Part shown: positions 459 through 63,006 of the stretch, piece by piece
Numbering within the stretch: the first letter of the stretch is position 1
How the letters are laid out: every line of letters begins with the position of its first letter
Assembly (NCBI GenBank): GCA_963765495.1
Contig: CAVXWP010000007.1
Coordinates: 352,001 to 416,000, forward strand
Direction: 5' to 3'
Length of the DNA stretch: 64,000 nucleotides
From: Blastocatellia bacterium
Lineage (GTDB): Bacteria > Acidobacteriota > Blastocatellia > UBA7656
Notes under the pieces: model-generated
What the model was told of the DNA's origin: nothing
The model's database searches: none
The model's input: the letters and a program-made list of their open reading frames with translations, nothing else
Program-made: the position numbers and the translations under genes

Positions 459-564
459 ATTCGTGATACGTGATTTGTGATGCGTGACTTTCAGGCAGTT
501 GCCCCGCAACAAGCGGATTGCAAATCTAACAAATCACGCATCAGGAATCACGTATCACGTATCA
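459..564. repeat. Heptamer inverted-arm element (NNCGTGA x4 / TCACGNA x4)
   Basis: Left arm ttcgtga tacgtga tttgtga tgcgtga (459-487), ~45-nt spacer, right arm tcacgca tcaggaa tcacgta tcacgta (533-564). Confidence 0.85.
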
Positions 565-582
565 TCAATAAGGAGCGGGCCA

Positions 583-2721
583 ATGAAGAGAGCACTACTT
601 ATCATCATCGCCTTTTCGCTAATGTCGCCGTTTGCCGCGCGGTCTGTAGCCACGACCGGCGCAAGCGACACAGCGACGATCTATCGTGACGAATACGGCA
701 TACCTCATGTCTTTGCCGATACGCTCGAAACGGCAGCCTTTGCCGTAGGCTATGCTCAGGCCGAGGACCGGCTGGAAGAGTTATTGAAGAATTATCGTCG
801 CGCCGCAGGCACTATGTCTGAGGTGTTCGGCCCGGAGTATTACCGCGACGATTACATCCAGCGCGTGTGGCGGCACGAAGAGATCAGCCGCGAAAAATAC
901 AACGAGGTCAACCCGAAAATCCGCGCGGTCTTCGAATCCTTCCAGGAAGGCGTGAAGCTCTTTATGAAAGAGCACCCCGATCAGGTTCCTTCCTGGGCGC
1001 AGGAGATTCACCCCTGGGATATAGTGGCGCTTTCACGCTACATCATCTGGGGCTGGCCTATGGGTGAGGCGGCGGGCGAGTTGCAGAGGGCCGGAATAAA
1101 GCTCGACCCGATAGCCTATCACGGCTCGAATCAGATGCTGATAGCTCCGAGCCGTACGACTATGCACGCACCCATCGCGGTCATCGATCCGCATCTTAGC
1201 TGGTACGGTGAGTTTCGATTCTACGAGGTCAGAATCTATGCGGGCGACTTCAACGTCTCGGGCGTCTCGATACTCGGAGTGCCTATCCCGAGCCTCGGTC
1301 ACAGCCGCTATTGCTCGATTGCGATGACGACGGGCGGGCCTGATACCTCCGATGTCTATGAAGAAGAGATCAACCCTGCAAACCCGCGCCAGTATCGCTA
1401 TGACGGCAAGTGGCGCGATATGGAGGTTCGCAAAGAGAAGATCGGCGTGAAAAACGGCGATAAAACCGACTGGCGCGAGGTCGAGATCGAGTACACGCAT
1501 CACGGCCCGGTGGTCGCTCGCAAGGAAGGAAAGGCTTACACGATGGCCATTCCCTACATGAACGAAGTGAAACTGAGCGATCAGATTTACGACATGATGA
1601 TGGCGCACAATCTGGATGAGATGAAGAAGGCGATGTCCGAGCTTCAACTGATGTCTCAAAACGTCATGATAGGAACCGTTCAGGGAGACATCTATTATGT
1701 TCGCAACGGGCGCGTGCCGATTCGCGCAAAGGGCGTGGACCCGAGCAAGCCTGTGCCCGGCAACACATCGGCCACCGAATGGCAGGGGCTTCATAAGTTT
1801 TCGGACCTCGTGCAGATTACAAATCCGCCCTCCGGCTACATGCATAATTGCAATGTCACGCCGTTTGGGATGATGAAAAACAGCCCGCTCACGCCCGAAA
1901 AGTACGCCGACCACCCTTACCTCTACAACGCCACGCGAGACTATCCGCGTCATCAGCGCGCGGAGATGATGACCGACCTGCTCGACGCGGCTACCAGGGT
2001 AAACGAGCAACAGGCCATCGACATCGCCTTCAGCCCGCAGGTGTGGCACGCAGAGACGTGGCAGCAGGCATTAAAGACGGCCTGGGAGAAATCGCCGGAA
2101 TCTGCCCGTACTGCCGATACAAAAGAGGTCTACGAGTTGATAGAAAAATGGAACCGTCGCAGCGATGCCGACTCCGAAGGGGCTCTTGCCTTCTACGCTT
2201 TCAAGAAGGGGCTTGGCCCGGAGCTGGCCAAAGAAGTCACGCCGCCCGCGACCGTTTCCGGCGAGCAGATGACGGCGGCCCTCAAGAGCGCGGCCGAATG
2301 GCTCAAGTCAAATTTCGGATCGCTTCACGTCCCCTACGGGACGTACTTTCGCGTAGGCCGGGCAGAGGGCGACAAGACCTGGCCCGTTGGAGGCGGATCG
2401 CTCAACGGCGGACAGAACAACGTAGGCATGGCCACGCCTCGGGCGATCTCTTTCGGAGAGGTTGGAAAAGTGATGGTGGGCCGTGGCGGGCAGACTTCTA
2501 CACAGATAGTGATACTGACCAATCCGCCAAAGTCCTATGCCATCATCCCGCTTGGCGAAAGCGATCACAAGAATAGCGGTCACTGGGACGATCAGGCCGA
2601 AAAGCTGTTTAGCAAGAGCAAAGTGGCCCCGACTTACTTTATGGACAAGAAAGCGTTGATGCAGCACGTTTCGGCAAAGAAAGAATTGAAACGCGCGGCA
2701 GCCTCACAGGCCGGACAATAA
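583..2721 (+). CDS. Penicillin acylase family (Ntn-hydrolase, S45) protein, secreted
   Basis: AAGGAG RBS before ATG 583; signal peptide; [11 protein letters not shown] and GYAQAEDRL motifs; autocatalytic GSN(Q) motif; DPHL. Confidence 0.9.
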
Positions 2722-2736
2722 ATCACTTGCTGACCG

Positions 2737-2827: not shown

Positions 2828-4153
2828 ATGGCCAATTTCACCGTAATTGAACCGATGTCGGCAGGCGATGTGATAGACCGCTCCGTGCGGCTCTATCGCC
2901 GCAACTTCGCCCCGCTCATCACCATAGTTGCCGTGCCTACCCTGTTCGGCTATCTGTCGTCGCTGATGTTCTGGTTTGGTCTGTTAGAGATGGAGGGCGA
3001 TGCCTCCTCAGGGTCCTACGCCATAGGGCTTGTGATGCTGCTGCTCGGCGGGCTTGGTTATCCTCTTTCGATGTTCATATTGCTTGTGACCTTTTCGGGG
3101 CTCTCTCGCGTCATAGGCGATCATTTGATGTTGAACGAGACGATCACCTTACGCAAATGTCTCTCTGCGGTTCGCCGCCGCCTCGGCGATATTACCTTGA
3201 TGGGGTTGCTTTCGATAGCCATTTTAGTGGCGCTCTACATAGCCTTTTCCATAATACTCTTTGTGTTGTTGATGATCGTAGGCGTGGTTGCGGGAATCAC
3301 CGCCACTCTCGGTCTGCCGCCCTGGATGATGTCGGTAGTGATGGTAGTCATAGTGCTGGTGGCGGTGAGTCTGGGTATTATAGGGATGTTGCTGGTCATT
3401 TCCCGCGTGATATTTTTGCCGCAGGTAGTGATGATCGAAGGCCAGGGGGCGGGCAATGCGCTCGGGCGCGCCATGCAGTTGGGGAAAGGGAATTGGTACA
3501 AGGTCGGCGCGATTGTGCTGTTCAGCTATTTCGTTTCAATATCGTTGCTTGCCGCGCTTACCCTGCCCGTGCTTTTCGCGCTGAATCTTATGGACATGGT
3601 GACAACGGAATTCATTTTCGGCCCCATCTGGAATGTGATCTATACGGCGTTCAATCAATTGACCAATCTGCTGGTGCTGCCTATCTGGGTAGTCTCTTTC
3701 ACTATGCTCTATTTCGACAGCCGCGTTCGCAAAGAGGCCTACGACATCGAATTGCTCGCGCAGGAAGTGGCCCCGGGGTTTTACTGGCAGCCCACAGTTC
3801 AACAGGCGGCATTCGGCTATCAAATGCCAGTGGTCGCGGGAACGGGGCGCGCCTATATTCAAACAAGCCCGCTCGGGCTGGCGGGCTACCGTCCGCCTCC
3901 CGCCCCTCCCCCCGTCGTGGCTCAACCGGCTGGGAGCGGAGAGGAAGACCTGCGACAAAAATTTGATCGCGCCGCCGCCGCGCTTGACCCGCCGGGCGAT
4001 AACATCCCGACCTCTCCGACAGACTCACAAACCGGGCAGGTCGGTTGTCGGAAGTGCGGTATGATGCTTGAGCCTGACGCGGGATTCTGTACGCGATGCG
4101 GCAGCCCGGCATCTACCCGGGCTGCCGAAGATCAGGAGAGGGAAGACGCATAG
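2828..4153 (+). CDS. Integral membrane protein (GPDPase-membrane-domain-like) with Pro-rich linker and C-terminal zinc ribbon
   Basis: Several TM helices, LYFDSRVRKEAYDIE motif, C-terminal CRKC...FCTRC. Confidence 0.75.
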   Translation: MANFTVIEPMSAGDVIDRSVRLYRRNFAPLITIVAVPTLFGYLSSLMFWFGLLEMEGDASSGSYAIGLVMLLLGGLGYPLSMFILLVTFSGLSRVIGDHLMLNETITLRKCLSAVRRRLGDITLMGLLSIAILVALYIAFSIILFVLLMIVGVVAGITATLGLPPWMMSVVMVVIVLVAVSLGIIGMLLVISRVIFLPQVVMIEGQGAGNALGRAMQLGKGNWYKVGAIVLFSYFVSISLLAALTLPVLFALNLMDMVTTEFIFGPIWNVIYTAFNQLTNLLVLPIWVVSFTMLYFDSRVRKEAYDIELLAQEVAPGFYWQPTVQQAAFGYQMPVVAGTGRAYIQTSPLGLAGYRPPPAPPPVVAQPAGSGEEDLRQKFDRAAAALDPPGDNIPTSPTDSQTGQVGCRKCGMMLEPDAGFCTRCGSPASTRAAEDQEREDA

Positions 4154-4158
4154 ATAGG

Positions 4159-5232
4159 ATGACAGGTCGGGTGATAAGTCGGGTGATAAGTCGGGTGATA
4201 AGTCGGATGACGGGGCCGATTGCAATTACATGGTTTTTGCTCGTAATCGTTGCCAAAGCGTCGGGCGCAAGCGATGTGCTCAACTATGAAAACCGGGTCT
4301 TTCGCGCGGGCGAGCAGGTGGAGCGCATAAAGACCGACAAAGAATACAGCGTAGAAGGCATAGACACCATAAAGCACCTGCTTCCGAGATCTGAAGATAT
4401 CAGGATGAATGATCAGGTGGTCGAGGTAAACAACACCTGGCTCTATGTTATGCTCGATTCCTACACGGCTGAAAGCGATCCTCAACAAAAAAAGGCAAAA
4501 CTTGACGAGGTGGCAGAACGCCTCGAAGCTCTCGACGAACATCTGCGCGCCGTTGTGAGTGAAGTTTCCGGTAATAAGGCGGCCAGCAAGTCGCATGAAC
4601 AGATAGAGCGGATACTTGCGCGCAGGGAGTATAAGCAAAAGAGCGAGAGCGCGATAGCGGCCTTTATAAGGCGAGTGCGGGAATCGGTCTTTGAATTTCT
4701 GCGCGACATGTATATACGGCTGGCCGAGGCATTGTTTGGGGAAGGCACACGCGCAAACTGGTTCTTTCGCGGATTGATAATTGCCGGGCTTGTTGTGCTG
4801 CTCGGTGTCGCCGTGCGAATGGTTATGGGGATCAAACGCGGCGAGAGACGAAAAAAGAAGCGTACGGTGCTTGGCGAAGAACTCGACTCCGATTTGACGG
4901 CGGCCGATCTTGCCAATGCCGCGACTGCCGCCGCGCGAGCCGGAGACTTTCGGACCGCGATGCGCAAGCTCTATATCTCGCTTCTTTACGATCTGGCCGA
5001 GCGCAATTTGATAGAGCTTGAGCCGAACGCGACAAATCGCGAGTACCTTGCCCGTGTCAGCCGCTATCCGGTGCTCGTCAAGCCTATGCTTTATATGACA
5101 GACCGATTCGATTACTTCTGGTATGGAATGTTTCCCTCATCGGAACAGGATTTTTCATCGTATCTTGAGAGCTATAAAGAGGCCATGGCAAGGGCGCGCA
5201 ATCTCGGCGAGCAGGCAGTTGCAACGGCCTGA
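4159..5232 (+). CDS. DUF4129 domain membrane protein
   Basis: TM segment followed by AARAGDFRTAMRKLYISLLYDL...ATNREYL...FDYFWYG; start probably ATG 4159 or 4207. Confidence 0.8.
   Translation: MTGRVISRVISRVISRMTGPIAITWFLLVIVAKASGASDVLNYENRVFRAGEQVERIKTDKEYSVEGIDTIKHLLPRSEDIRMNDQVVEVNNTWLYVMLDSYTAESDPQQKKAKLDEVAERLEALDEHLRAVVSEVSGNKAASKSHEQIERILARREYKQKSESAIAAFIRRVRESVFEFLRDMYIRLAEALFGEGTRANWFFRGLIIAGLVVLLGVAVRMVMGIKRGERRKKKRTVLGEELDSDLTAADLANAATAAARAGDFRTAMRKLYISLLYDLAERNLIELEPNATNREYLARVSRYPVLVKPMLYMTDRFDYFWYGMFPSSEQDFSSYLESYKEAMARARNLGEQAVATA
4166..4210 (+). repeat. 12-bp tandem repeat GTCGGGTGATAA x3.7 (encodes RVIS repeats)
   Basis: Read directly from the sequence at the 5' end of the DUF4129 gene. 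Confidence 0.9.
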
Positions 5233-6038: not shown

Positions 6039-6050
6039 ACGGGCGAACAG

Positions 6051-8766: not shown

Positions 8767-9210
8767 ATGCGAACAAGGGTTGCGATTCGATTTTTTTTCA
8801 TTTTAGCGGCAACGCTCACTCCGAGCGTTCGGGTCACGGGGCGTAGCCTCCAATCAGACGAATACGGGCCCGAGGTAAAATCCTTCCTCGAATACCTGCA
8901 TCACGAAGATATAGAACTGGAATTTCAGATACAGCGCAACGAGATTACGCGCCAGGGTTACAATCGCGCGAAAAACAAGATAATCATCCTCCGGCAGACC
9001 GTTCTCGGTATAGTCAAACAGACGGGGCAGGATGTTGTGCCTGAATTACACGTGGTCGCCTCCGACGAGCTTTATCAACTGATCGGAGACGAAGCTTCGG
9101 CGCTCAAGAGTGTGAAGAAGGGAGAGATCGTGCACGAACGTTGGCGCTTGATAGGCAAGGTAAGTCGCGGAGAGGTCTATTATATCTTCGAGCGCCTGCC
9201 CCGAAGCTGA
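8767..9210 (+). CDS. Hypothetical secreted protein
   Basis: ORF with a signal-peptide-like N-terminus (MRTRVAIRFFFILAATL); no family recognised. Confidence 0.65.
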   Translation: MRTRVAIRFFFILAATLTPSVRVTGRSLQSDEYGPEVKSFLEYLHHEDIELEFQIQRNEITRQGYNRAKNKIIILRQTVLGIVKQTGQDVVPELHVVASDELYQLIGDEASALKSVKKGEIVHERWRLIGKVSRGEVYYIFERLPRS

Positions 9211-9471
9211 CGCGGGGCCGGGGGCCAGGGGTCAGGGGCCGGGGTGTCGGGTTCATATCCGCGAAAATCCGCCCGATCCGCGTCATCCGCGGCCTATTTC
9301 AAGTATTCTAACCTGCATGTTGAAAATCTTTATGATTCTACGAATTCGATTGCCAAACGTCATCATCTGAAAAGATTTGATATTACTGATTAAACCGATT
9401 AATAAGTTTCGCTTTTATCAGGCTCTTTCTCAACTCAACCCCGCCCCCTGACCCCTGGCCCCCGGCCCCCG
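9211..9471. repeat. G-rich heptamer inverted-arm element (CRGGGGY / RCCCCYG) enclosing a 46-bp dispersed repeat and an AT-rich spacer
   Basis: Left arm cggggccgggggccaggggtcaggggccggggtgtcgggtt; right arm aaccccgccccctgacccctggcccccggccccc. Confidence 0.85.
9257..9302 (+). repeat. 46-bp dispersed repeat copy 1 (ATCCGC units x4 + CTATTTCAA)
   Basis: Near-identical copies at 17670-17715 and 53059-53104. Confidence 0.9.
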
Positions 9472-9484
9472 ATTGACTCAACTG

Positions 9485-9630: not shown

Positions 9631-10785
9631 ATGTCTACGATAAACTTCTCGCAGGTTATACAGCAGATGCTGGCCGTATCAGACAAGATTTCCGATCTCA
9701 TATTTTCGCCCGGACGTCCGCCTCAGGTAGAGTTGATCGGCAAGCTTACTCCGGTCAAGGTGGACGGTATGGAGATGCTCACGCCCGCGCACACGGCAGG
9801 CGTGGCAAAAGCATTGATAGGCAATAACAAGAATGCCGAAGAGTCTCTGGAAAAACACGGCTCGGCTGATCTCTCTTTCAGTCTGCCGGGCATGTCGCGG
9901 TTCCGCGTAAACATATTCAAACAGCGTGGAACTCACGCCATAGTAATGAGAGTCGTGCCCGACAAGATACCTTCCTTCGAGGATCTGCTTCTGCCGAAGC
10001 AGTTGAAAGACATTGCCGAATTGAAAAACGGCATCGTGCTGGTCACGGGGCCTACGGGATCGGGTAAATCTTCTACGCTTGCGGCAATAATTGACCTGAT
10101 CAACCAGACCAAGTATTACCACATAGTTACTATCGAAGACCCTGTGGAATTTATGCATCGCCACAAGAACTGCACGGTGCATCAGAGGGAGTTGCACTCC
10201 GATACATCGAGTTTCGCCTACGCGCTGAGAGCGGCGCTGCGCCAGGCACCGAAGGTGATACTGGTCGGAGAGATACGTGACCTCGAAACCGTTGAGGTGG
10301 CGCTCGAAGCCTCAGAGACCGGCCACCTCGTGCTCTCGACCCTGCACACGACCGATGCCGTCAAGACCGTCGAGCGATTGATAGGACTCTTTCCAAAGAG
10401 CCAGGAGCATATAATCAGATTGCGGCTCTCGGGCGCTTTCAGGTTTATCGTCTCGCAGCGGCTTATGCCGCGCGCAGATAGTCAGGGCCGCGTCGCCGCT
10501 ATTGAAATCCTCCGGTCAACGGCGCGAACTCGCGATTATATTGAGAAAGGCGAGCGCGAAGGGAAGTCGCTATATGATGCCATGCGAGACGGCAATCTGG
10601 ACGGAATGCAGGTTTTTGATGCGGAGATAGAACGAATGATTCGCACAGGCATGATCACAATGCAAGACGGACTTGCCTATGCAACCAATCGCCAGAATCT
10701 TATGCTTCAGCTCTCGGATGTCGGCGGCAGCTCGATTGGTGAGATGCTGGGAATGAAAGGCAATACTTCTGATCTTATTAGCTGA
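9631..10785 (+). CDS. pilT: PilT/PilU family type IV pilus retraction ATPase
   Basis: RFRVNIF, GPTGSGKSST, TIEDPVE, ALRQAPKVILVGEIRD, TGHLVLSTLHT. Confidence 0.92.
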   Translation: MSTINFSQVIQQMLAVSDKISDLIFSPGRPPQVELIGKLTPVKVDGMEMLTPAHTAGVAKALIGNNKNAEESLEKHGSADLSFSLPGMSRFRVNIFKQRGTHAIVMRVVPDKIPSFEDLLLPKQLKDIAELKNGIVLVTGPTGSGKSSTLAAIIDLINQTKYYHIVTIEDPVEFMHRHKNCTVHQRELHSDTSSFAYALRAALRQAPKVILVGEIRDLETVEVALEASETGHLVLSTLHTTDAVKTVERLIGLFPKSQEHIIRLRLSGAFRFIVSQRLMPRADSQGRVAAIEILRSTARTRDYIEKGEREGKSLYDAMRDGNLDGMQVFDAEIERMIRTGMITMQDGLAYATNRQNLMLQLSDVGGSSIGEMLGMKGNTSDLIS

Positions 10786-10805
10786 GATACCCGGATACCT
10801 CGCTA

Positions 10806-10928
10806 TGATGCGTGATGCGTGATGCGTGATGCGTGATTCGTAATCGGTGGTTTTTGTGTAGCCCGCCTGTAGACGACAATTTTTGAGCCTGGTTAATCAC
10901 GCGTCACGCATCACGCGTCACGCATCAC
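10806..10928. repeat. Heptamer inverted-arm element (TGATGCG x5 / CGCRTCA x4)
   Basis: Left arm 10806-10843, ~52-nt spacer, right arm 10896-10928; directly after the pilT stop. Confidence 0.9.
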
Positions 10929-32010: not shown

Positions 32011-33420
32011 TTGACAAATTTTTTACAGATGGCTATCACATTCGCCCTGGTTCTGGGGGGAATGGTCGTAATTCATGAATTTGGTCATTTTATCGTGGCA
32101 AAATTTTTCGGTATTCGCGTTGAAGCCTTCAGCGTGGGTTTCGGGAAACGGTTATGGGGATTTCGTAAAGGTGACACTGATTACAGGTTAAGCCTGATCC
32201 CTCTGGGCGGTTACGTCAAGATGGCCGGAGAGAATCTGGATGAACAGGTCACGGGTGCGCCTTACGAATTCATGTCCAAGCCTAAATGGCAGCGTTTCTG
32301 CGTGGCCGTAGCCGGGCCTGTGATGAATATCCTGACGGCGATTGCCATACCCGCCGCGATGGCGATGATCTATTATGAGATGCCGGCTTTCGAGGGTCAC
32401 CCGGCGGTCGTTAATGCTGTTGAGACAGGTTCTCCGGCTGAAAAGGCTGGTATAGAGCCGGGCGATTTGATTGTAAGCATCAACGGTCAGGAGACTCCTA
32501 CCTGGCGCGATGCCGAGGACCTGGTACTGGTCAACCCCGACCAGGAAGTGCCTGTGGCGGTCAAGCGCAATGGAGCTACAAAAGAGCTGAATTTACACGT
32601 CGGGACGTTTCAGGTCGAATCGGAAAAGATTGGATACGCGGGATTCAGACCCGATCCGGGGCCTAATGCGAAGATAGTCGTTCAAGCCGTTTCACCGGGC
32701 GAGCCTGCCGCAGAGGCGGGTCTGAAGCCCGGCGATCAGATCGTCGCCGTCAATGGTACCCCGGTCGAGCAGAGTTTCTACGGCGAACAGAGGGTGATTC
32801 AGGCCATAAGAACCAGCAACGGTCAACCCATAACACTTACAGTGAAACGCGGCGATGAAACGCTCGATATTCAAGGCACCCCTCGGATGAATGAAGGCGA
32901 TTTACGTCTTGGGTTCTCGCAGCAACTGGAAGGCGAAGAAATGATAGTCGCGCGATTGGGTCCATTCGCCGCGATCAAATATTCGGTTGATATGAATGTG
33001 CGGATACTGCGACTGACGAAGACGGCAATCGCCCAGATTTTCGTAGGGCAACGATCAGCGCGCGATACGCTGACCGGCCCGGTCGGCATATTCAAGCTCT
33101 CAGGCCAGGCTGCCGAACAAGGTGCCGGATCGGTCTTTCGACTAATGGCCATACTTTCGCTCAACTTAGGTGTATTCAACCTCCTGCCCATACCAGTCCT
33201 CGACGGCGGGCTCATCTTCATGCTCCTGCTTGAGGCTTTGCTCGGGCTGTTCGGCCTGTCGCTGACCTTGCGGATCAAGGAAAGAATGATGACGGTTGGG
33301 TTTGTGATGTTGATGTTGCTTATGGGATTTGTGATCTTTAATGATATCTCGAAGCTTATCCCGAGCCGCAGCGCACCACAACCGCAGGCGGAACAACAAG
33401 CGCCTGCCACCAGTAAGTAG
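32011..33420 (+). CDS. rseP: RIP metalloprotease RseP (two PDZ domains)
   Basis: HEFGH, IPLGGYVKM, AGPVMN, NLLPIPVLDGG; GAGGAG RBS before TTG; usual dxr-rseP synteny. Confidence 0.93.
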   Translation: MTNFLQMAITFALVLGGMVVIHEFGHFIVAKFFGIRVEAFSVGFGKRLWGFRKGDTDYRLSLIPLGGYVKMAGENLDEQVTGAPYEFMSKPKWQRFCVAVAGPVMNILTAIAIPAAMAMIYYEMPAFEGHPAVVNAVETGSPAEKAGIEPGDLIVSINGQETPTWRDAEDLVLVNPDQEVPVAVKRNGATKELNLHVGTFQVESEKIGYAGFRPDPGPNAKIVVQAVSPGEPAAEAGLKPGDQIVAVNGTPVEQSFYGEQRVIQAIRTSNGQPITLTVKRGDETLDIQGTPRMNEGDLRLGFSQQLEGEEMIVARLGPFAAIKYSVDMNVRILRLTKTAIAQIFVGQRSARDTLTGPVGIFKLSGQAAEQGAGSVFRLMAILSLNLGVFNLLPIPVLDGGLIFMLLLEALLGLFGLSLTLRIKERMMTVGFVMLMLLMGFVIFNDISKLIPSRSAPQPQAEQQAPATSK

Positions 33421-33477
33421 TCACCAGTAAGTAGTCACCAGTAAGTAGCCACCAGTAAGTAGCCACCAGTAAGTGGC
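33408..33477 (+). repeat. 14-bp tandem repeat CACCAGTAAGTAGY x5 spanning the rseP stop codon
   Basis: Copies start at 33408, 33422, 33436, 33450 and 33464. Confidence 0.92.
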
Positions 33478-33734
33478 CGGCCACAGAAGCCGGAAATTGT
33501 ATTCGAGCAAGTGGGATAGAATTTGTTTGACCCGATACGGATTATAGCCTCGCTGCAAAATTTATTATTGATCTGACCTGTGGCGAGACTTATAATCCGT
33601 GTCGGAGTTGGCCCTCACCGACCAAGTCCCGAATCTTTTAATCAAATTTACAGCCCCTACACGATACTTCCTGCCCCAAGAATCACAGTTGTAATGCAAG
33701 TCATTACTGGATGTGTGTCTGTCGAGGTCCAAAA

Positions 33735-41011: not shown

Positions 41012-41545
41012 TTGAAGAAAGAGCATCTTTTGATCGGAGTGATAACGTTTCTCACTCTCTCAATCACCGTCGTAGTCTTCGCGCAACTGAGAAACATTTC
41101 GCGAGAGCGAACGCCAAAGCTGACCACCGACGATGTGAAGAGCGGGTCACCTCCCGCGGCGTCTTCGCGCGGCCCGGTAGAACCGGCGAGCGGCAGCATA
41201 AGCTGGCAAAGAGATCTCTCTCACGCGCTCAATCTTGCCAATGCCGAAGGCAAGGTAGTGGTAGTTGATGTTTATACGGACTGGTGCGGCTGGTGCAAGA
41301 AGATGGATCAGGTCATCTACACCGATGCGACCGTCGTGGGGCTCAGTCGCCAGGAGATCTTTCTAAAACTCAACGCGGAAGATGGCGGACAGGGCGAGCA
41401 ATTCGCCCGCCAGATGGGCGTCAGAGGATACCCGACCACTGTGGTCTTAGACAGCCGGGGCCGCAAACTCGATTTGGCCAGGGGCTATCTTGGATCACCG
41501 CAGAACTTCATCAGATTTGTCGAGAACGCGCGAGCCGCCAACTAA
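41012..41545 (+). CDS. Membrane-anchored thioredoxin-fold protein
   Basis: N-terminal TM/signal; TDWCGWCK; GVRGYPT. Confidence 0.85.
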   Translation: MKKEHLLIGVITFLTLSITVVVFAQLRNISRERTPKLTTDDVKSGSPPAASSRGPVEPASGSISWQRDLSHALNLANAEGKVVVVDVYTDWCGWCKKMDQVIYTDATVVGLSRQEIFLKLNAEDGGQGEQFARQMGVRGYPTTVVLDSRGRKLDLARGYLGSPQNFIRFVENARAAN

Positions 41546-41552: not shown

Positions 41553-41659
41553 TGATGCGTGAACCGTGATGCGCGATGCGTGATGCGTGATGCGTGACCC
41601 GGAGATTGGCAAGTACCTGTTAACAGCCATTTGCCTGAAAATCACAGATCACGCATCAC
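41553..41659. repeat. Heptamer inverted-arm element (TGATGCG x6 / ATCACRS x3)
   Basis: Left arm 41553-41597, right arm 41641-41659; same unit as 459-564 and 10806-10928. Confidence 0.85.
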
Positions 41660-45295: not shown

Positions 45296-45341
45296 GGAAA
45301 TTCTCCTTTTCCGCGAAAGAGGTTTTTCCTCGGATTGCTCT

Positions 45342-45535
45342 GCGGGTCTCCTGACTTAGCGCCTCGTCCCTTGAAATCTCAAATCTCAAATCTGAAATCT
45401 CAAAGAGGCTCCTACGCCGACGCCTTCCCACCACGAACGGGCAGTGGCATTGATGTCGGTTTCGTTGCGCATCACAGTTGCGCGACAGTGGCGGACTCTC
45501 ACCGCCTTCTCCGCTTCGGGCAACCCAGATTGGCA
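45342..45535 (-). ncRNA. Cobalamin riboswitch upstream of the TonB receptor
   Basis: Minus strand GGCGGTGAGAGTCCGCC-ACTGTCGCGCAACTGT ... GCCACTG ... GGGAAGGC ... AAGTCAGGAGACC. Confidence 0.88.
45371..45404. repeat. Heptamer tandem (AATCTSA x4) inside the riboswitch
   Basis: ttgaaatctcaaatctcaaatctgaaatctcaaa; same unit as 2737-2782. Confidence 0.85.
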
Positions 45536-45562
45536 AATAGCAAAGACCTCAATTACCGGCGA

Positions 45563-48451: not shown

Positions 48452-48616
48452 CGCTTGCGGCGAGTGTTTACCACTGGAGATGGAGGGTTGAGTATCGCGC
48501 AAATGAAAAAGCTCCTGCCGACCCTCTCCGCGCGGCGGGTCGAGCAGGAGCTTTGCTGTATACTCCCACGCGCCTTGCCCTCTCACGCGGAAGGCAGTCG
48601 GCTGTTGACGCGCTCT

Positions 48617-48832
48617 GGGCAGGTCTCCTGGCTTAGCTTCCGGCTGCGCTGCAAAAGCTTGCTGCAAAAACTTGCTACAACAACCTTGCGCACCCAATCG
48701 CCGGCGGCCTTCCCGATCTCGGACCAGTGACCCGTTTGCCGACGAACTATGGAAGCATCACAGTGGCGGGACCGCGCGGGAATCTCACCCGCTTCCCTAT
48801 TCTCCCCGAACTTGAAGCCCGGGGCACCCACA
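48617..48832 (-). ncRNA. Cobalamin riboswitch upstream of btuFCD
   Basis: Minus strand GGTGCCCC...AATAGGGAAGCGGGTGAGATTCCCGC-GCGGTCCCGCCACTGT ... GTCACTG ... GGGAAGGC ... AAGCCAGGAGACCTGCC. Confidence 0.92.
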
Positions 48833-48940
48833 GCTTGAATGCTTTTATACTAGCATCCCGAAACTCGAACCTAGCACGCCCGCCGGAGTTGAGTCAAATC
48901 GAAACCATAAGCTGTATTTGTTCAACAAGAGAGCGGAGGG

Positions 48941-56063: not shown

Positions 56064-59000
56064 TTATCTGAGTCTCATGCTTGGATCGCCAAACAGAATA
56101 TACGACAATCGCACATCGGGATCAGCGACTGCGGCTTTTGCCCTCCGGGCGGCCTCGCCAAGCGTAATCGGCTGCCGCGTCATACTGTCGCTTGAAAAGA
56201 TCAGCCTCAACATCTCTCGATTTGCTGCCGCCTGTGATTCCGCCCCGGTCTCACCCGATGAAGCCCAGACGGCCACTGCGCCTCCGTGCTCCGCTTTCAT
56301 CAATGATTCGGCCAGAGAGTCTACCGACGGGTCCTGAAAATAGCCGTTCAGACAGGTCATATCCAGAAACATCGCCAGATTATTCTGATTCACAAGCAGG
56401 CGCGCATCGGTTGATTCGAGCAGATTTCCCCGCCACAGATTCACCGACCCATGCCCGAGATAATTGACGACAGTCTGTCCTTGATTGATTCCATCCAGCA
56501 ACATTCCTTTGGCCGTTTGAGGGTCCAGCCCTGATCGCTTGATCTCCTGAACCCGCAGGTAAGAGGGCAACATAGCGCGCAGCCCGGAACTGGCACCCTC
56601 GAAATCGAATACATCGTTTGAGTCGGCTACGAGCAGGGCTGATCGAGATGACCCGCTCCTTTCATAGGCGATGATCTTGCCTGCCATCAGCGCCGCTTCA
56701 TCGGATGTGCGCGCGGGCAATCGGCCTACGCTCAAATCCGCCAGCCCGTCGTTGTTAAAGTCGGCCAGCCAGTCGTCGGACGCCGTTTCCAGGAATTCCG
56801 TATCTATCAACTTCGACGGCACAAGGTCCCAGTTCCCGTATCCCAGATAGTTTCTCGCGTCGAAACTGGCGTCTGCGGCAAACATCACAAAGCGCGGTTT
56901 TCTCTTCCAGTTTGTCGAAGCAAAGGCGAGGAAATCCTTTATCGCCTGTGGCGTCTTGTGCCCGTAGCTGAACTCATCGTAAACATCCTCTATGTCAACC
57001 AGAGCCACCACCAGCTTCTGACTTTGTCTCAACGTTTTGAGCGGTTCAAGACTGGCAAAGAATTCCCGGCGGGTGATGATGATGAAGTCGGCTCCGTTTG
57101 ACGCCTTTTTCCAGTTCGACGGCTGATTGGCCGTGATGGCGGCTGGGGACTCAACCCGGTCTTCCGCGATTGCCAGTAAAGTTCGCACTGATGAGCCGGG
57201 CGCTCTAAGCGATATCGAGTAGCCGTCAATCGCTTTTTGAATCGCCGCGCTCAGCGCCTGTGGCGCGTTCGGGTCGGTGATGTCAACAACGCGAATCTGT
57301 GAATTGCTAAACCCGCTTATGGTCACGCTCTGATTGCCCTGCGCCGTAAATCTGAGCGCGTCATCTTCGGCCTTGTATGTGTGCGAGTAGGTGAGGCGAA
57401 CATAATCAACAAGGCTCACGTCGCCCGCGTCTGATTGAGATATTAACGACACTTCGTTGTGACCCTCGGAAAGCATCCCGGCAGAAAGTTGGAACCTCGC
57501 TATTTCGTGCGCTCTGCCGTTGAACGACATTACGCCGACTACGGCTCCATTGACCGTAACACTGACCTGATGAGGCAACAGCGTGACGCCCTGGACCGCG
57601 ACCTCCAACACGGCCGATGCGGACGTATCAAGGCGCTGCAAGACAAGCGATTGATCGACAGGCTGGCTCGCAGTTATGACCGGCCCGAAGAAGTTTTCCT
57701 GCTCTCCGTTTTTCAGAGAAGAGAAGTAGATAGTCCTGTCCCTGCGCTCGATGGTGTAAGAGAAACTGCCCGAACCAACCGGCTTGACCGAGCCTTCGAG
57801 CGTAGCGATTCTATCGCCGAATTGAGAGCCGCCCACCAGCCAGTAAACGCGAGTATCGGTTGCCGGTGTATCGAGCCCCTGACCATAAAACTCTACCGTG
57901 TCGGACGGATCAAATCTGGCGTCCTCCTGTCCCTGTACGATGATCGGCAGTTGACGTCCGTCAACGAATAGCTGGAGTAAACGCGGATCAACATTTGGAT
58001 CAAGACCCGCTCGAACGAGGTCAGGCTGAGTGAGCCTGTACCAGCCTTCGTGATTGACACTCAGTTTTATGGCCGACCCGGAAGCCAGCCCGGATTGAAT
58101 CGAATAATCTTTCGCCCCCAAAACATTGGCGCTTGATTCAACCTGTCGCGACAGCCCCACAAGAGGCCGGGCCTCTCCGAGCGTACTGAGGAAAGCGGCC
58201 TGACTTCGCTCCGGCGGACGTTCGTCACCCGTCTTAACAGGCGCGAGGGGGCCGTGAAGCGAGCGTTTGCCGTTGATGTCAATGTCTTCCAGATAATAGA
58301 GCGCGTCCTGTTTACTATCAGGGGAATTATCCCACCACGAATAAACGCGCCCGGCTGTCAGGGGTGGCGACCCTATCACAAGAGCAGACCCGGCAAGCAT
58401 CTCAGGTGTTACCCTCGTCATCTGTCCCCCCTGCTGACGATAGATGTTGAAGCCGAGATTATCTGCCTCAAATCCGGTCTGCCACAGGAGATATACGCCC
58501 TTGTCATAGCCGGTCGCGGTGAACGCATCTACCTTCGCCGCCGTTGGAGTGCTGACGGTGAAGTTGCCGTTTGTAGTCGTGGTGGTGACGGCAGGTGGGC
58601 CGCTCCCAAATTCCGTGAAGAACCAGTTGAGCCCGCTCATCTGTCCCTGTGTCCCTACCACATCGAACCTCAATATTATCAGCGTCTGCTGCCCTGTGAA
58701 TATCAGCGGATTCTGGAAATCCACTACCAACCGCAGCCTCCCGGACACCCCCGTGTTCTCTGTGACGACCCCGGTCGATGAGACCGTCCCTGTCGTGTTG
58801 AATGAGGGCGAATGTGGAACCAGCACGCTGGGATCGAAACTGATCTCGATTGTGTAGCCCAAAACGAAATCGCCGTTTGTGAGAGTGCCGTTAACCATGA
58901 CCGGGATAGAGACATCAGTAGAACCGGGAGGAGCAACGACACTGGGCAAAGAGAGGGCAAGGTTAGTGGCCGAAGGAGCCTGACTCTTCTGAAATGAAGC

Positions 59001-62000
59001 AGGATCAGGAGCAGCGGGAGTCCAGTTGCCGTCAACATCTCCGATCAGCAAGGCATCGTAATCCTGGTTTGTTTGATTTGAAACAAGCGAGGGATAACTC
59101 CTAGAGGCGGGAGAGAATTTCCAGGAGCCGGTGATGCCAGTGGTAGAAAGTTGAGCGACAAATCTGCGAAGGAAGCCAATGTCCTGGCCGCCGAGCGAGC
59201 CGTTGTTATCTGTATCGCCAGCGATGGATTGGCAGGGAGTGGGGGTATCGATGCCGGCGGCGAGGCGGCGGAGGATACCGATATCCTGAGCGGAGATGCC
59301 GGAGACGGCACCGGTTTTGGAAGGAGCAACGGTGTAAGGGCCAGTGCCGAGGTCATCGAGTTGATAGAAGCCGGAGGCGTTAGTAGAGGTGGAAGCGGAA
59401 GGGGAACCGCTGGTAGTCTGGACGGTGGCGTTGGGGACTTTCTTTGAGTTGTCGATGCAATAAGAGATCGTCCCTGATATTGAGTTAGCGACCTCCGGGC
59501 TTTCGACCTCAATTATCGTAATGGCCGTGTTGTCGCTCAGTTTTCCACGAGAGTCTGTGACTCTCAATTTCGCTCCGTACTCTCCCGCCGCATCGTATGT
59601 GTGCGAGATCGTAGGCGAGGCCTGAGTCACAGGCGCGCTGCCGTCACCGAAATCGAATGTGTAAGAGAGAACCGTATCGCACATATCGGAATCGCTTGAA
59701 GCCGAGCCGTCGAAATTCACCATCAGCGGCGCGGTCCCTGTCGTCGGCGTGGCAAGCATGCTGGCGATTGGCGCGGTGTTTGGCTGGCAGGAACGATTGC
59801 CCACCAGCGTATAACCTCCACTGGCTGTCGAATCAATGGTCGCAAGCAATACTCCGATTGTCTGCTGTGTTATTGCGTTGACATTGCCGAAAGTATCGCC
59901 CGGCGCGGGCGGGGGCAATGTGGCCGGAGGTGGAGTCAGATTGAATGTCAGCTTGCTGTTGGAAACGACTATGGTTATCGTGCCGTCGGCCGAGAAAGTG
60001 CTTTCGGGGTCGGCATCGCCGTCCGTTGTAAGCTGCCGCACGCCACCCGTCCCGATCATGGTGTGACCATACTTGAATGTGACGCCAGTCGGGTTGCCGG
60101 TGTCATCCGAATTCATGCTGACGAAGTATTCGGTCCCGCTTGCCCGGCTGAAAAAGATCGTCCAGCGAGCTTGCGGCGGAACGACAGACAGGTCAGCCAC
60201 TTTCATCGTGAAGACAAGCTGATTTGTGCACTTATTCAGAAACGGCTCGCCGATGGATATCTGTCGAATATCGAGTTGAGGCGTGGCGGGGTCGCCCGTT
60301 TGATCGCCTGCCGGATCGGTGGTTATCAGTATTCCGGGCAGGCTGCACGCATCGGGCGCGGGTGGCGCGGCCGTAACCTCTACCTCTCCGCAAAACACGC
60401 CTTCGCCTATGCTGTTCATAGCCGTTACGCGATAAAAATATTGCGTATTCGGATTAGCCGTAGCGTCGAGGTATCTCGGAGCGGACGGGTTGATTGAGGC
60501 GAGGAATGTCTCGCCTCCGCTGGTCGTTCCCCGATAAATTTTATAAGCCGTGAGCGGCGAGCCGCCGCTGTCAGGCTCATCCCACTGCACGGTAACTCCC
60601 TGGTTGTCTCTGGTGGCAGAGATGAGACGGGGCGCGGGTGGCGCAGCAGGCTCTACGGGATCAAAGGCCGCAAACAATCGACGCCCGCCCGATTGCCTTA
60701 TGATAGTCGCTTTCGAACTTCGGGAAGATGATGACGGGGAAGGCGGGTCCTGTAAGCATGCAGGCGATACGCAGCCATCGGCATAAGCCGCAAGCACACG
60801 CCCTTCTTTGTCAACCGCGATGTCATTGAAATCGAGCAGGTTGCGGTCATCGCCGCAGGTAGTCCCGCTCGTGCAGATCGAGCCTATCTGCACGGGGTCT
60901 GAGGGCGTGGCATCAACCAGAAAATACGAGTTGCCGCGATCATAAGTCGTGGCGATGTAGAAATGCCAGATGCCATGAAAATTATCCGCGTCCTGATAGT
61001 TGCCGCCCGTTGGCGTGCCTACGAATCCGAAGGCCGCGCGGTCCCCGTCACCTGCGACCGCTTCCGGGAATACGCAGTTTTGAATGAAACCGCCGCCCAC
61101 GTCCCTGTCTAACCATGTCTGCCCGCGATCTGTTGAACGCGCCATGTGCGGATGCCCGTCGCCGTTTTGATACCCGAAGTAGAGAGTGTTGTCTGAGCCT
61201 ATGCCCACGGAAGGGTCGGTGTCGCCCGGCGTGCTGCCCGGTACGGTTCGAATCGTCCATGTCAACCCGTTATCGGTAGAGACGGCTACGCCCTGCTCAC
61301 CGCTGCATCCCTTGTTAGGCACATACACGGTTCCATCGGGCGCTACCTTTACGTGACCGTGCAGACCGCCGCACTGCACAAGGCTCCACATGGGAACGCC
61401 TGCGCCAAAGGTCAATCCGCCGTCATCGCTGCGCGCAGCAAAGGCGGTGGCGGCATCCTGTGAAGCGTAATAAACCGCGTTGGGCGAGAGCGGATGAGGG
61501 GGCGGAGGCGGGGTGGCCGATTCGTTATAAGGACCGCCGCCTACCGTTTGATGATCTACGCCGGCGGGTACTCCCGCTCCTTGAGACGGCAACCACGTCT
61601 CTCCGTCATCGTCGGAGAAGGCGAGTATGCTGCCTGCCCCGGTCAACTGAGATTGAAAGACCCGGCCCGTTTGATGATCCACAAATCCGATTGGGTCGAG
61701 TCCGCCCACGCTTGTCTGCGGGCTGGTTTTGTCTTCCCAGAGCGCCCCCGCCGGTGATGAACAATCGTCAAAGCTCACACGCAATTCATTGACGTTAGCC
61801 GTAAAGAATGCGACGCCGCCCGTATTGACCGTGCCGTGTTTCAGGCTCGGCAGATTCGGATTCCAGTCAACGCCGATGGAAGGCTCGCCCGCTTCGTTCC
61901 CAAGCCCGGTCGGGTCGGGATAGTTCTTGTATCGGGGCGCGATTCCGGGCGGGGGAGGCGGAAGCTGTGGTAGCGGTTCGAGGCTGATCGTCCCGGTGAA

Positions 62001-62567
62001 ACTCTGACCCGCCGGAGCGAAGGGAACTACGCGAATCCTGTAGACGCCGTTGACCGGCTGAATATAGGCTACTTCCGGGTCGGATGAGGAAGCCGCCGTG
62101 GCGATCACGTTTTCCCCCGTATCTCCCTGAAGCACATAAACATCGAAATCGGCTGCCGAAACCGGCCACTGGGTTACTATCTTTACCCTGTGAGTTGATG
62201 GAGTAATGGGCGGGCTTACGGCTATAGTCAATGTGAAATCATCGCATTCAAGAGCCGCGTTACAAACAGGGGTTCCGTTGGCCTGCGCCGATGCGTTGGG
62301 CACGAAAAACGGCCCCGCAGTGTAGGTGACAGGGCCGCTGTTGTTTGTGAGTGTGCCGGTCGGGGGCGTGGCAGCTTCTACTCCTATGTCGAATAGCCAG
62401 GCACTAAATAATACCGAAGAACATAATATCAACAATACCAGACTCTGAACGAGCCTCGCCGTCTTCAGTCTTATGATTCGGTTTTTCAAGAGGTAGTATC
62501 TGATTTTGGTTATGTATTTTGAAGAAAGGCTTCTGGCACCGGAAAGCGAGGGCTTGCCCTGTTTCAT
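56064..62567 (-). CDS. Giant secreted modular protein: Asp-box beta-propeller, FN3, PKD, dockerin, cohesin, Ig-like domain and C-terminal C25 (gingipain/PorU-like) cysteine peptidase
   Basis: AAGGAG RBS; signal peptide; Asp boxes SDDDGETW, SDDGGLTF, STDNGLTW, STDRGQTW; FN3 W..P..GGSPLTAYKIY; PKD FDFGDGS; dockerin GDTDNNGSLGGQD; C25 VGRLP, NYLGHG, MTCLNG, LFGDP. Confidence 0.85.
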   Translation of the reverse strand: MKQGKPSLSGARSLSSKYITKIRYYLLKNRIIRLKTARLVQSLVLLILCSSVLFSAWLFDIGVEAATPPTGTLTNNSGPVTYTAGPFFVPNASAQANGTPVCNAALECDDFTLTIAVSPPITPSTHRVKIVTQWPVSAADFDVYVLQGDTGENVIATAASSSDPEVAYIQPVNGVYRIRVVPFAPAGQSFTGTISLEPLPQLPPPPPGIAPRYKNYPDPTGLGNEAGEPSIGVDWNPNLPSLKHGTVNTGGVAFFTANVNELRVSFDDCSSPAGALWEDKTSPQTSVGGLDPIGFVDHQTGRVFQSQLTGAGSILAFSDDDGETWLPSQGAGVPAGVDHQTVGGGPYNESATPPPPPHPLSPNAVYYASQDAATAFAARSDDGGLTFGAGVPMWSLVQCGGLHGHVKVAPDGTVYVPNKGCSGEQGVAVSTDNGLTWTIRTVPGSTPGDTDPSVGIGSDNTLYFGYQNGDGHPHMARSTDRGQTWLDRDVGGGFIQNCVFPEAVAGDGDRAAFGFVGTPTGGNYQDADNFHGIWHFYIATTYDRGNSYFLVDATPSDPVQIGSICTSGTTCGDDRNLLDFNDIAVDKEGRVLAAYADGCVSPACLQDPPSPSSSSRSSKATIIRQSGGRRLFAAFDPVEPAAPPAPRLISATRDNQGVTVQWDEPDSGGSPLTAYKIYRGTTSGGETFLASINPSAPRYLDATANPNTQYFYRVTAMNSIGEGVFCGEVEVTAAPPAPDACSLPGILITTDPAGDQTGDPATPQLDIRQISIGEPFLNKCTNQLVFTMKVADLSVVPPQARWTIFFSRASGTEYFVSMNSDDTGNPTGVTFKYGHTMIGTGGVRQLTTDGDADPESTFSADGTITIVVSNSKLTFNLTPPPATLPPPAPGDTFGNVNAITQQTIGVLLATIDSTASGGYTLVGNRSCQPNTAPIASMLATPTTGTAPLMVNFDGSASSDSDMCDTVLSYTFDFGDGSAPVTQASPTISHTYDAAGEYGAKLRVTDSRGKLSDNTAITIIEVESPEVANSISGTISYCIDNSKKVPNATVQTTSGSPSASTSTNASGFYQLDDLGTGPYTVAPSKTGAVSGISAQDIGILRRLAAGIDTPTPCQSIAGDTDNNGSLGGQDIGFLRRFVAQLSTTGITGSWKFSPASRSYPSLVSNQTNQDYDALLIGDVDGNWTPAAPDPASFQKSQAPSATNLALSLPSVVAPPGSTDVSIPVMVNGTLTNGDFVLGYTIEISFDPSVLVPHSPSFNTTGTVSSTGVVTENTGVSGRLRLVVDFQNPLIFTGQQTLIILRFDVVGTQGQMSGLNWFFTEFGSGPPAVTTTTTNGNFTVSTPTAAKVDAFTATGYDKGVYLLWQTGFEADNLGFNIYRQQGGQMTRVTPEMLAGSALVIGSPPLTAGRVYSWWDNSPDSKQDALYYLEDIDINGKRSLHGPLAPVKTGDERPPERSQAAFLSTLGEARPLVGLSRQVESSANVLGAKDYSIQSGLASGSAIKLSVNHEGWYRLTQPDLVRAGLDPNVDPRLLQLFVDGRQLPIIVQGQEDARFDPSDTVEFYGQGLDTPATDTRVYWLVGGSQFGDRIATLEGSVKPVGSGSFSYTIERRDRTIYFSSLKNGEQENFFGPVITASQPVDQSLVLQRLDTSASAVLEVAVQGVTLLPHQVSVTVNGAVVGVMSFNGRAHEIARFQLSAGMLSEGHNEVSLISQSDAGDVSLVDYVRLTYSHTYKAEDDALRFTAQGNQSVTISGFSNSQIRVVDITDPNAPQALSAAIQKAIDGYSISLRAPGSSVRTLLAIAEDRVESPAAITANQPSNWKKASNGADFIIITRREFFASLEPLKTLRQSQKLVVALVDIEDVYDEFSYGHKTPQAIKDFLAFASTNWKRKPRFVMFAADASFDARNYLGYGNWDLVPSKLIDTEFLETASDDWLADFNNDGLADLSVGRLPARTSDEAALMAGKIIAYERSGSSRSALLVADSNDVFDFEGASSGLRAMLPSYLRVQEIKRSGLDPQTAKGMLLDGINQGQTVVNYLGHGSVNLWRGNLLESTDARLLVNQNNLAMFLDMTCLNGYFQDPSVDSLAESLMKAEHGGAVAVWASSGETGAESQAAANREMLRLIFSSDSMTRQPITLGEAARRAKAAVADPDVRLSYILFGDPSMRLR

Positions 62568-62898
62568 GTAGGTTCTCCTTTAGCGGTCTGACATTTGTGA
62601 GATATGGAAAAGCATCTTTGACACATCCGCGGTGACCGACTGCGCCAAATTTCCTCGGAATCTATTCTTCAGACAAAAGCGACCTTGCCGGGAGCAATCC
62701 CCGTACCATCTTTAACCCGCTTCTCGACAGTCAGCAGGCGGGTGATTGGTATCTTTTACTATTTACAGTGATTTGTTTGCCCGAGGGGGAGAATTACCGA
62801 TCCTGTATGCTTTGCCGCAAGGGTAAGAAATTAGATAGCAGAAGAGGCTGTTCTGTATGATAAAAGGACTCTCGAATTGTCTTATTTTGTTTCAGTAA

Positions 62899-63006
62899 CC
62901 GTGACGCGTGACGCGTGATGCGTGAAAAGACCTAGAGAGAATTTACAGGATAAACAAGATTATTTTTCATCTTCTGAAATCTTGTTTATCCTGTAAATCC
63001 TCTCTA
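62899..63006. repeat. Orphan heptamer arm (CGTGAYG x4) followed by a 21-bp perfect inverted repeat of the ACARGAT class
   Basis: ccgtgacgcgtgacgcgtgatgcgtga (62899-62925); atttacaggataaacaagatt (62941-62961) / aatcttgtttatcctgtaaat (62978-62998). Confidence 0.85.

Follow-up and report, generated by a model that had tools for sequence, protein, structure and literature searches.

Palindromic elements with heptamer-array arms, dispersed through a Blastocatellia genome, share their arms with PF05635 cassettes and with a 23S rRNA intervening sequence

What are the runs of tandem heptamers that recur, with different sequences and one shared architecture, in a 64-kb window of a Blastocatellia genome? 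The window, by which we mean the whole stretch of DNA analysed, spans positions 352001-416000 of contig 7 of assembly GCA_963765495.1 (7.30 Mb in 17 contigs, 54% G+C), and positions given below are counted from its first base unless another contig is named. An earlier note on this DNA had named eleven places with period-7 arrays, and Tandem Repeats Finder, together with direct reading of the sequences, finds them at all 11. Nine of these sites are paired elements, in which three to six heptamers are followed by a spacer of 0-206 nt and then by the reverse-complement run, and the remaining two (45371-45404 and 62897-62926) are solo arrays. We find that elements of this design are copies scattered between unrelated flanks, with arms and in many cases a loop core in common, and that their arms are also those of cassettes enclosing PF05635 genes and of a genuine ribosomal RNA (rRNA) intervening sequence (IVS). 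The answer that we favour, and consider probable, is that they form a genome-wide family of selfish palindromic repeats with heptamer-array arms, resembling MITEs (miniature inverted-repeat transposable elements) and REPINs (repetitive extragenic palindromic, or REP, doublets forming hairpins); they would be the counterparts, free of an open reading frame (ORF), of the PF05635 cassettes, with the rRNA IVS as a special case.

A census of the whole genome, with a threshold of at least four copies at 85% identity and periods from 4 to 15, returned 790 arrays of period 7 versus 1-53 for each other period, and the fixed period first noticed in the window is thus confirmed throughout the genome. A looser scan gave 1384 arrays (1243 once merged). 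The dominant units are TGATGCG, TGATTCG, TGAGGGA, GGGGCCN, TAGGCAG, TGAGATT, TGAGTTT, TGATACG, GGATTTT and TGATCCG. Neighbouring inverted arrays with a spacer of less than 500 nt make up 333 strict pairs (median spacer 53 nt), to which the TGATGCG/TGATTCG/TGATACG/TGATCCG group contributes 130, TAGGCAG 44 and GGGGCCN 35. Pairing extends beyond this set: 255 of the 579 strictly unpaired arrays have a complementary partner within 300 nt, versus 3 for a non-complementary control, and a rough tally comes to about 333 strict pairs, about 250 further arrays with degenerate partners and about 300 solo arrays. Apparent "spacers" of 783-1165 nt were considered as enclosed cargo and rejected, as they are ordinary genes lying between two different elements (panC-like and ribosomal protein genes, for example).

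The strongest sign that these are copies of one another comes from the loops. The spacers had been described as non-conserved, which does not hold within families: 105 of the 296 spacers of at least 25 nt, about a third, group into 28 clusters with one unit per cluster, and the mean identity within loop-core clusters is 88-97%. Among the TAGGCAG clusters are a 67-nt core (17 copies) and two 110-nt cores (7 and 6 copies), a TGAGGGA cluster has a 66-nt core in 8 copies, and TGATKCG clusters have cores of about 41 nt in 12 and 7 copies. In the 12-copy alignment the core is conserved and each arm holds three to six heptamers, with nothing in common between the flanks; loop cores face either way with respect to the adjacent gene (9:3, 5:4, 2:2 and so on). 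The elements thus show two of the features expected of MITEs, terminal inverted repeats and many dispersed copies with a common core. Random slippage, which the earlier note had doubted, is excluded by the period-7 excess and by loop cores common to unlinked sites.

The elements are also lineage-specific, being present here and absent from the orthologous sites of relatives, the nearest of which belong to other genera (75-78% nucleotide identity; nearest metagenome orthologues at most 88% identical in protein). Four sites filled here are empty in relatives: the two junctions of the gene at 9631-10785, helix 45 of the 23S rRNA and the spacer between the transfer RNA (tRNA) genes for Ile and Ala. 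Both junctions around the 9631-10785 gene are array-free in 11 of 11 relatives' loci, and the downstream one is empty in 79 of 80 metagenome orthologues, the lone filled site carrying an array with a different unit directly after the orthologous stop. Apart from this one exception, orthologous sites therefore show the filled-versus-empty pattern that the earlier note had looked to, and this pattern, along with arms and cores common to families and unrelated flanks, fits the non-autonomous dispersed element that it had envisaged.

The elements in the window are the following (unstranded unless a strand is given; z, z-score of the fold):

459-565: paired element with TGATWCG-type arms (arrays 459-487 and 532-564; z -8.7); an ATG at 584 follows 19 nt after its end, with AAGGAG in between
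2737-2782: short paired element of GGGAGAT/TGGGATC units without a spacer (array 2754-2780; z -5.7); a stop at 2719-2721 precedes it by 16 nt
9211-9472: GGGGCCN-armed element (arrays 9214-9244 and 9439-9471); it begins one base past the TGA stop at 9208-9210
10804-10928: TGATGCG-armed element (arrays 10806-10841 and 10896-10928; z -8.3), about 20 nt past the stop at 10783-10785
20058-20157: TGAGTTT-armed element between two minus-strand genes (arrays 20062-20090 and 20125-20157; z -9.2), 10 nt from the stop at 20168
21634-21706: element with mixed GGTGATC/GGGGTCA arms between minus-strand genes (arrays 21634-21662 and 21681-21696; z -6.2), 4 nt from the stop at 21711
26561-26652: TGAGGGA-armed element in the tRNA-Ile/tRNA-Ala spacer (arrays 26562-26592 and 26619-26647; z -8.1)
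28262-28372, plus strand: TGAGTTT-armed IVS in helix 45 of the 23S rRNA (arrays 28273-28304 and 28334-28363; z -11.1)
41553-41659: TGATGCG-armed element with a degenerate 3' arm (array 41553-41597; weak arm at about 41640-41659; z -4.1), starting 7 nt past the TAA at 41543-41545
45371-45404, minus strand: solo TGAGATT array inside a cobalamin riboswitch (array 45374-45404)
62897-62926: solo TGACGCG array without a complementary arm (array 62900-62925)

Eight of the paired elements were folded, and all have long stems, with z-scores from -4.1 to -11.1; for each of the eight, none of 200 shuffles folds as well. The loop of the GGGGCCN element holds a separate dispersed repeat of about 130 bp (9254-9387), of which there are at least seven other genomic copies, 86-95% identical and without heptamer arms, with GCGGAT-like short repeats at the left ends of the copies. 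Adjoining the solo TGACGCG array, between two minus-strand genes, is a near-perfect 28-bp inverted repeat that is not built of heptamers (62917-63000). Elsewhere in the window we noted a 14-nt tandem repeat (14 being twice 7) of 5.2 copies at 94% match (GCCACCAGTAAGTA; 33406-33478) at the end of the ORF at 32011-33420, a 12-nt tandem repeat of 3.8 copies (GTCGGGTGATAA; 4166-4210) where the ORFs at 2828-4153 and 4096-5232 overlap, and a very long minus-strand ORF of 2167 amino acids at 56064-62567.

The earlier note had located these arrays and overlooked the hosts of three of them: two lie in an rRNA operon and one inside a cobalamin riboswitch. The operon, as delimited with Rfam and ARAGORN, is made up as follows:

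24761-30390, plus strand: rRNA operon hosting two elements
24761-26315: 16S rRNA
26484-26558: tRNA-Ile
26653-26728: tRNA-Ala
26989-30121: 23S rRNA
30274-30390: 5S rRNA

The element at 26561-26652 occupies the whole tRNA-Ile/tRNA-Ala spacer, which is 94 nt long here versus 22-42 nt in four relatives of the same family. The insert at 28262-28372 lies in the hairpin loop of helix 45, between positions 1218 and 1219 of the Rfam large-subunit model. The tip of this helix is short in 8 of 8 relatives' 23S genes aligned across the site (from several families, several with a TTCG-type loop), and in metagenome rRNA contigs of other organisms the stretch that corresponds to 28259-28378 is 16-39 nt long; instead of the short tip, helix 45 here carries a 110-nt TGAGTTT-armed hairpin, with a minimum free energy of -51.7 kcal/mol, about 32 paired positions and a loop of about 40 nt that contains neither an ORF nor a PF05635 gene. 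The insert is thus an ORF-less 23S rRNA IVS. Both elements are identical in the two rRNA operons of the genome. A second, smaller 23S expansion lies just downstream of the IVS (28400-28470; 51 nt versus 18 in the Rfam model). According to the available text of PMC4990558, an IVS is an extended stem-loop that replaces the helix 45 tetraloop and is excised by RNase III in Salmonella, Leptospira, Coxiella and others, and that of Coxiella contains three tandem heptamers whose copy number differs between strains. The present genome has an RNase III gene, and the RNA-processing role that the earlier note had considered would gain an anchor here by analogy, given that one listed element is an insert of the type RNase III excises elsewhere. 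The third host site belongs to the solo TGAGATT array, which is inserted in the cobalamin riboswitch at 45324-45555 (minus strand) between model positions 151 and 152. A second cobalamin riboswitch (48601-48846, minus strand), 3 kb from the first, overlaps a 13-nt tandem repeat at 48648-48689.

The family PF05635, a four-helix bundle named "23S rRNA intervening-sequence protein", supplies the second link between the elements and IVSs. The earlier note had found no such gene in the window and had suggested, as an unverified point, that these genes are flanked by 7-mer arrays; a profile search agrees on the first statement, and the second proves right in this genome, where inverted heptamer arms, the G-rich one upstream, surround all four PF05635 genes, which are located outside the window (contig 1 at about 725, 952 and 1071 kb, contig 7 at about 194 kb). 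The arms of each cassette are built of a unit of their own (GGGGCCN, TGAGTTT, TGAGGGA or GGATTTT), and among the 333 ORF-less pairs 130 are made of one of these four. Of 28 cassettes from the same taxonomic family, 16 are flanked by arrays on both sides, 8 on one and 4 on neither, and three other genera have PF05635 cassettes with TAGGCAG arms; for 30 cassettes sampled across the phylum the counts were 12 with arrays on both sides, 5 on one side (one of them a masked-base artefact) and 13 on neither. A cross-tabulation of 301 genomes of the phylum, made by hand and including the unpublished genomes G053, G077 and G177, counts 128 in which five TGAs follow one another at period 7 at least once and 166 with PF05635, the gene being present in 65 of the 66 genomes with at least ten period-7 TGA hits versus 101 of the remaining 235.

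Cassettes of different genera with exactly the same unit encode proteins that are 67-81% identical, versus a median of 45% for different units, and in 17 of 35 cases the unit is shared with the closest neighbour by protein. This fits the inheritance of protein and arms together, and equally a constraint on the unit, and stops short of proof of recognition. Simple deletion of a cassette was tried as the source of the ORF-less elements and rejected, as there is no similarity beyond the arms; the helix-45 IVS aligned to the TGAGTTT cassette, for instance, matches it in the arms only. As regards the autonomous parent expected of a MITE, cassettes with the same arms do exist, but they encode PF05635 and their interiors are unrelated to the ORF-less cores.

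Eight elements lie inside ORFs, and all of them are GGGGCCN elements (8 of the 35 GGGGCCN pairs), a family without stop codons. They are read through as inserts of 40-60 residues rich in Gly, Pro, Ala and Arg, in genes that include QueA, hydantoinase A, hydantoinase B and a radical SAM/DUF2344 protein, with Pfam domains recognised on either side of the insert. In the QueA gene (contig 13, 68135-69301; loci L190-L196) the same surface loop has inserts with different units in eight genera: in the seven other genera, all of the same family, the in-frame inserts measure 120-171 nt, have purine-rich-first units of other kinds (CAGGGAG, CAGGGGA and CAGGAGT, for example) and in some cases still form strong hairpins and in others have decayed, and the loop is insert-free in two genomes of the same family and two more distant ones. 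As with the palindromes of Rickettsia, we thus find palindromes in frame in conserved genes, and QueA orthologues both with and without an insert. The loop may be either a hot spot or the site of an old insert whose unit has turned over.

The architecture is strictly polar. The G/T-rich arm lies 5' in 325 of the 333 inverted pairs, which upholds for the genome what had been reported for the window; the eight exceptions are mostly TAGGCAG units, in which G+T equals A+C and the stop-bearing strand is still 5', and the sole true reversal among the 333 pairs turns out to be the gap between two adjacent elements. As the polarity of a palindrome reads alike on both strands, it is a real property of the elements. 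The pyrimidine-purine-purine (Y-R-R) triplet described in most units, once per period, is in most of them simply a stop codon: the 5' units contain TGA in 223 pairs, TAG in 47, TAA in 5, both TGA and TAG in 2, and none in 56. Since 3 does not divide 7, a run of three such units puts a stop into each of the frames. On entry to the element, whichever the side, 432 of 648 arms present stops in all three frames; on exit, only 7 of 648 do and 548 have no stop at all. Stops alone cannot account for the polarity, however, since the stop-less families also place the G-rich arm first. Arms paired by Watson-Crick bonds without a gap are 25.5 nt long at the median and, once mismatches are permitted, Watson-Crick pairs fill 6330 of 6845 stem positions (stem boundaries were set by a gapless Watson-Crick stem search; RNAfold with padded flanks was dropped, as the padding paired by chance and biased the result).

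The position of the elements is just as regular. Their landing sites mark the borders of functional units, namely the end of a gene just past its stop codon, the gap between two tRNAs and the helix 45 tip; stop-less families are found in frame within protein loops as well. Relative to genes from a crude custom caller (5425 genes, 86% coding), the 333 elements are distributed over 235 co-directional, 70 convergent and 19 divergent contexts, 8 positions inside ORFs and 1 contig edge, and the 5408 intergenic regions used for comparison comprise 3832 co-directional, 791 convergent and 785 divergent ones; divergent contexts are thus depleted (19 of 333 versus 785 of 5408). Measured over 375 gene ends, the first stem base lies at a median distance of +3 nt from the stop codon (interquartile range -3 to +9.5), and in about a third of cases the stop codon lies inside the arm. 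In co-directional contexts, 89% of the 235 elements are closer to the upstream stop than to the downstream start (medians 3 versus 27 nt), a preference that persists in long spacers, with medians of 1 versus 136 nt where 100-250 nt are free and 6 versus 331 nt where more than 250 nt are; of the 70 convergent contexts, 45 have the stem no more than 15 nt from each of the two stops. Of 375 gene ends, 20 have a U-tract (TTTT within 12 nt) behind the stem, which matches the intergenic background of 5.3%, and elements also occur inside the rRNA operon and a ribosomal-protein operon, so they are not ordinary intrinsic terminators. An origin from such terminators is excluded by the missing U-tract excess and by the loop cores common to family members. 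In the ribosomal-protein operon, on contig 2 (429831-431062), heptamer elements flank L16- and S17-like ORFs.

If the elements are selfish repeats, they would spread through copying without target-site duplication, which REPINs are not known to leave either, and the four-helix-bundle protein encoded by a cassette possibly recognises its own arms. They would persist through doing little harm: the 5' arm would halt translation in three frames from either direction, and the long perfect stem would probably be removed from the RNA or cut by RNase III, as in known IVSs. The G-rich-first polarity may prevent the C-rich arm from being exposed as single-stranded RNA, avoiding the loading of Rho. The copy mechanism, the processing by RNase III and any role of the PF05635 protein are what we infer from the arrangement described above.

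Several observations weigh against this answer. The dispersal and the empty sites bear out the non-autonomous copies envisaged in the earlier note, but there are no target-site duplications, flanking direct repeats being at the level of a shuffled control. Nor is there an associated transposase: the two Y1 (PF01797) and eight reverse-transcriptase matches in the genome have no adjoining heptamer arrays, with the one exception of a solo array about 1.4 kb from the weaker Y1 match, the strong one having no array within 1.5 kb, and a Y1 transposase flanked by its own repeats, the mark of REPINs and their RAYTs (REP-associated tyrosine transposases), is thus absent from this genome. To our knowledge, PF05635 has no catalytic activity and is not a known transposase. 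No PF05635 cassette of this genome carries the arms of its commonest families (the TGATGCG/TGATTCG group and TAGGCAG), the ORF-less loop cores show no similarity to cassette interiors, and the co-occurrence of PF05635 with arrays is an association confounded by relatedness and genome size. The relatives being distant, of other genera, no recent insertion event was caught. The tight placement at stop codons is unexpected for harmless random insertion and needs either targeting or function. Finally, G-U pairs among stem mismatches show no sense-strand bias (171 versus 153, p=0.34), and there is thus no signature of selection on an RNA fold in the direction of transcription.

A wider version of the same idea is possible, and we offer it tentatively: heptamer hairpins and PF05635 genes together could constitute a widespread, undescribed class of mobile element built like REPIN-RAYT, in which a protein related to Avd (the accessory protein of diversity-generating retroelements) would recognise the arms and drive or protect the copying of the cassette and of its ORF-less riders. 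Such a class would also explain the rRNA IVSs, the heptamers of cyanobacteria and Xanthomonas, stop-hugging repeats and in-frame hairpins, and the polarity would reflect avoidance of Rho.

The most serious alternative, which we regard as rather unlikely, is that the host has selected these sequences as intercistronic RNA elements, whether for cistron processing by RNase III, 3'-end protection, stops in all frames or shielding from Rho, with their spread being secondary. It draws on much of the evidence just given, as the stop codon is hugged even where 100-330 nt of spacer are free, both gene ends sit close to the stem in most convergent contexts, the polarity is nearly invariant with three-frame stops on entry only, the stems are long and near perfect, and the genome has an RNase III gene; the Correia elements of Neisseria, moreover, provide a precedent for repeats cut by RNase III in messenger RNA (mRNA), as described in the accessible part of PMC2649163. 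Against this, the orthologous junctions of relatives lack elements, so that neighbouring lineages manage without them, and copies occur where such a job would be senseless, at the tip of helix 45, in the interior of a riboswitch and in frame in enzymes. The hairpin at the QueA site has decayed in several genera, loop cores are found in either orientation to the gene, and the stems show no G-U bias in the sense direction. That last result argues against strong one-way selection on an RNA fold and the strict placement at stops argues for targeting or function; on balance of the two, we hold selfish spread to be the probable explanation and selection by the host a rather unlikely one.

Local replication slippage, by which arrays would grow in place at ordinary terminator hairpins without copying between sites, we consider very improbable. 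The number of heptamers does vary among copies of one family, as it does between strains in the Coxiella IVS (per the available text of PMC4990558), and the different units found by genus at the QueA site could be turnover in place. Yet the same few units recur hundreds of times, and loop cores of 40-110 nt, 88-97% identical, are common to unlinked sites, which already contradicts slippage; there is no U-tract excess, period 7 alone is enriched, and the rRNA, inter-tRNA and coding-region sites are not terminators. Least credible of all is a regulatory role as G-quadruplexes, which has been proposed for heptamer arrays in Xanthomonas (GGGAATC) and Nostoc (GGGGAYT): the Xanthomonas G-rich heptamer arrays in convergent inverted pairs have the same architecture (as seen in the accessible part of PMC4692102) and G runs are present in GGGGCCN and TGAGGGA units, but these two families, with 82 of the 333 pairs, are the only ones with at least three consecutive G per unit, most families (TGATGCG, TGATTCG, TGAGTTT, TGAGATT, TAGGCAG, GGATTTT) lack the G runs needed, and the complementary arm would compete through a duplex of about 25 bp.

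Returning to the selfish family that we favour, its interest lies in what it brings together. We know of no function for PF05635, which is a large protein family. One genome here unites an ORF-less IVS, hundreds of dispersed copies and four PF05635 cassettes with common arm units, and three puzzles (heptamer repeats, PF05635 and the origin of rRNA IVSs) become one testable hypothesis. There is also a practical consequence for annotation: stop codons are contributed by the elements, spurious N-terminal extensions arise from them, and ORFs can be joined or made longer. The available text of PMC4692102 states that heptamer over-representation in bacteria has been reported since 2007 and short tandemly repeated repetitive sequences (STRRs) since 1990, with no detailed study at that time, and that of PMC4990558 calls the origin of rRNA IVSs unclear. 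Our literature search, outside of which lay subscription journals and supplements, found no paper joining heptamer arrays to PF05635 beyond the Coxiella observation, nor one joining heptamer arms, PF05635 and dispersed ORF-less copies.

The known systems each share part of this design. Rickettsia palindromic elements are palindromes that lie in frame in conserved genes and are read through as extra loops, and the eight GGGGCCN copies resemble them; unlike those elements, the ones described here have heptamer-array arms, only the stop-less family enters genes, and most copies are extragenic with stops in all frames. Correia elements carry TA duplications; they have unique terminal repeats and create promoters, unlike the features seen here. 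They are dispersed inverted repeats that are co-transcribed and form RNA hairpins bound or cut by RNase III, according to the accessible part of PMC2649163, and by analogy such a fate is likely for the RNA of the elements in this genome.

The helix-45 insert resembles the 23S IVSs known from helix 45 or 25 in Salmonella, Leptospira, Coxiella and Campylobacter in that an extended stem-loop replaces the small helix 45 tip, and resembles that of Coxiella in its tandem heptamers (both as given in the available text of PMC4990558). There are IVSs that carry an S23p/PF05635 ORF, and here too the PF05635 genes are found within stems of this kind. Unlike the known examples, the insert described here is ORF-less, its whole stem consists of tandem heptamers, and it is one of several hundred copies, nearly all of the others being in mRNA contexts; its excision by RNase III is a prediction.

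The STRRs, tandem heptamers of heterocystous cyanobacteria, share the heptamer period and the intergenic position. In two Xanthomonas genomes, Rehm et al. 2015 counted 186 and 183 G-rich heptamer arrays, of which 70-75 per genome were convergent inverted GGGAATC pairs with the G-rich array inward on each strand (available text of PMC4692102). Like the elements here, these are mainly intergenic tandem heptamers with the same polarity; unlike our analysis, that work read one unit type as G-quadruplex elements, and the available text draws no link to PF05635, rRNA IVSs, stop codons or copy families (PMC4692102). Also in contrast to the Xanthomonas arrays, at least nine unit families coexist in this genome, most of them unable to form quadruplexes.

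The closest likeness in overall organisation is to REPINs and MITEs, with which the elements share two inverted arms around a spacer, a long hairpin and hundreds of extragenic copies in families, and to the REPIN-RAYT system, in which, as here, a few gene-carrying elements have the same arms (accessible parts of PMC3116915 and PMC10969869). They differ from REPINs in that the arm is a tandem 7-base array rather than a unique sequence of 20-25 nt, with many unrelated units following one design, and from REPIN/RAYT pairs in that the associated gene encodes a four-helix-bundle protein rather than a tyrosine (HUH) transposase.

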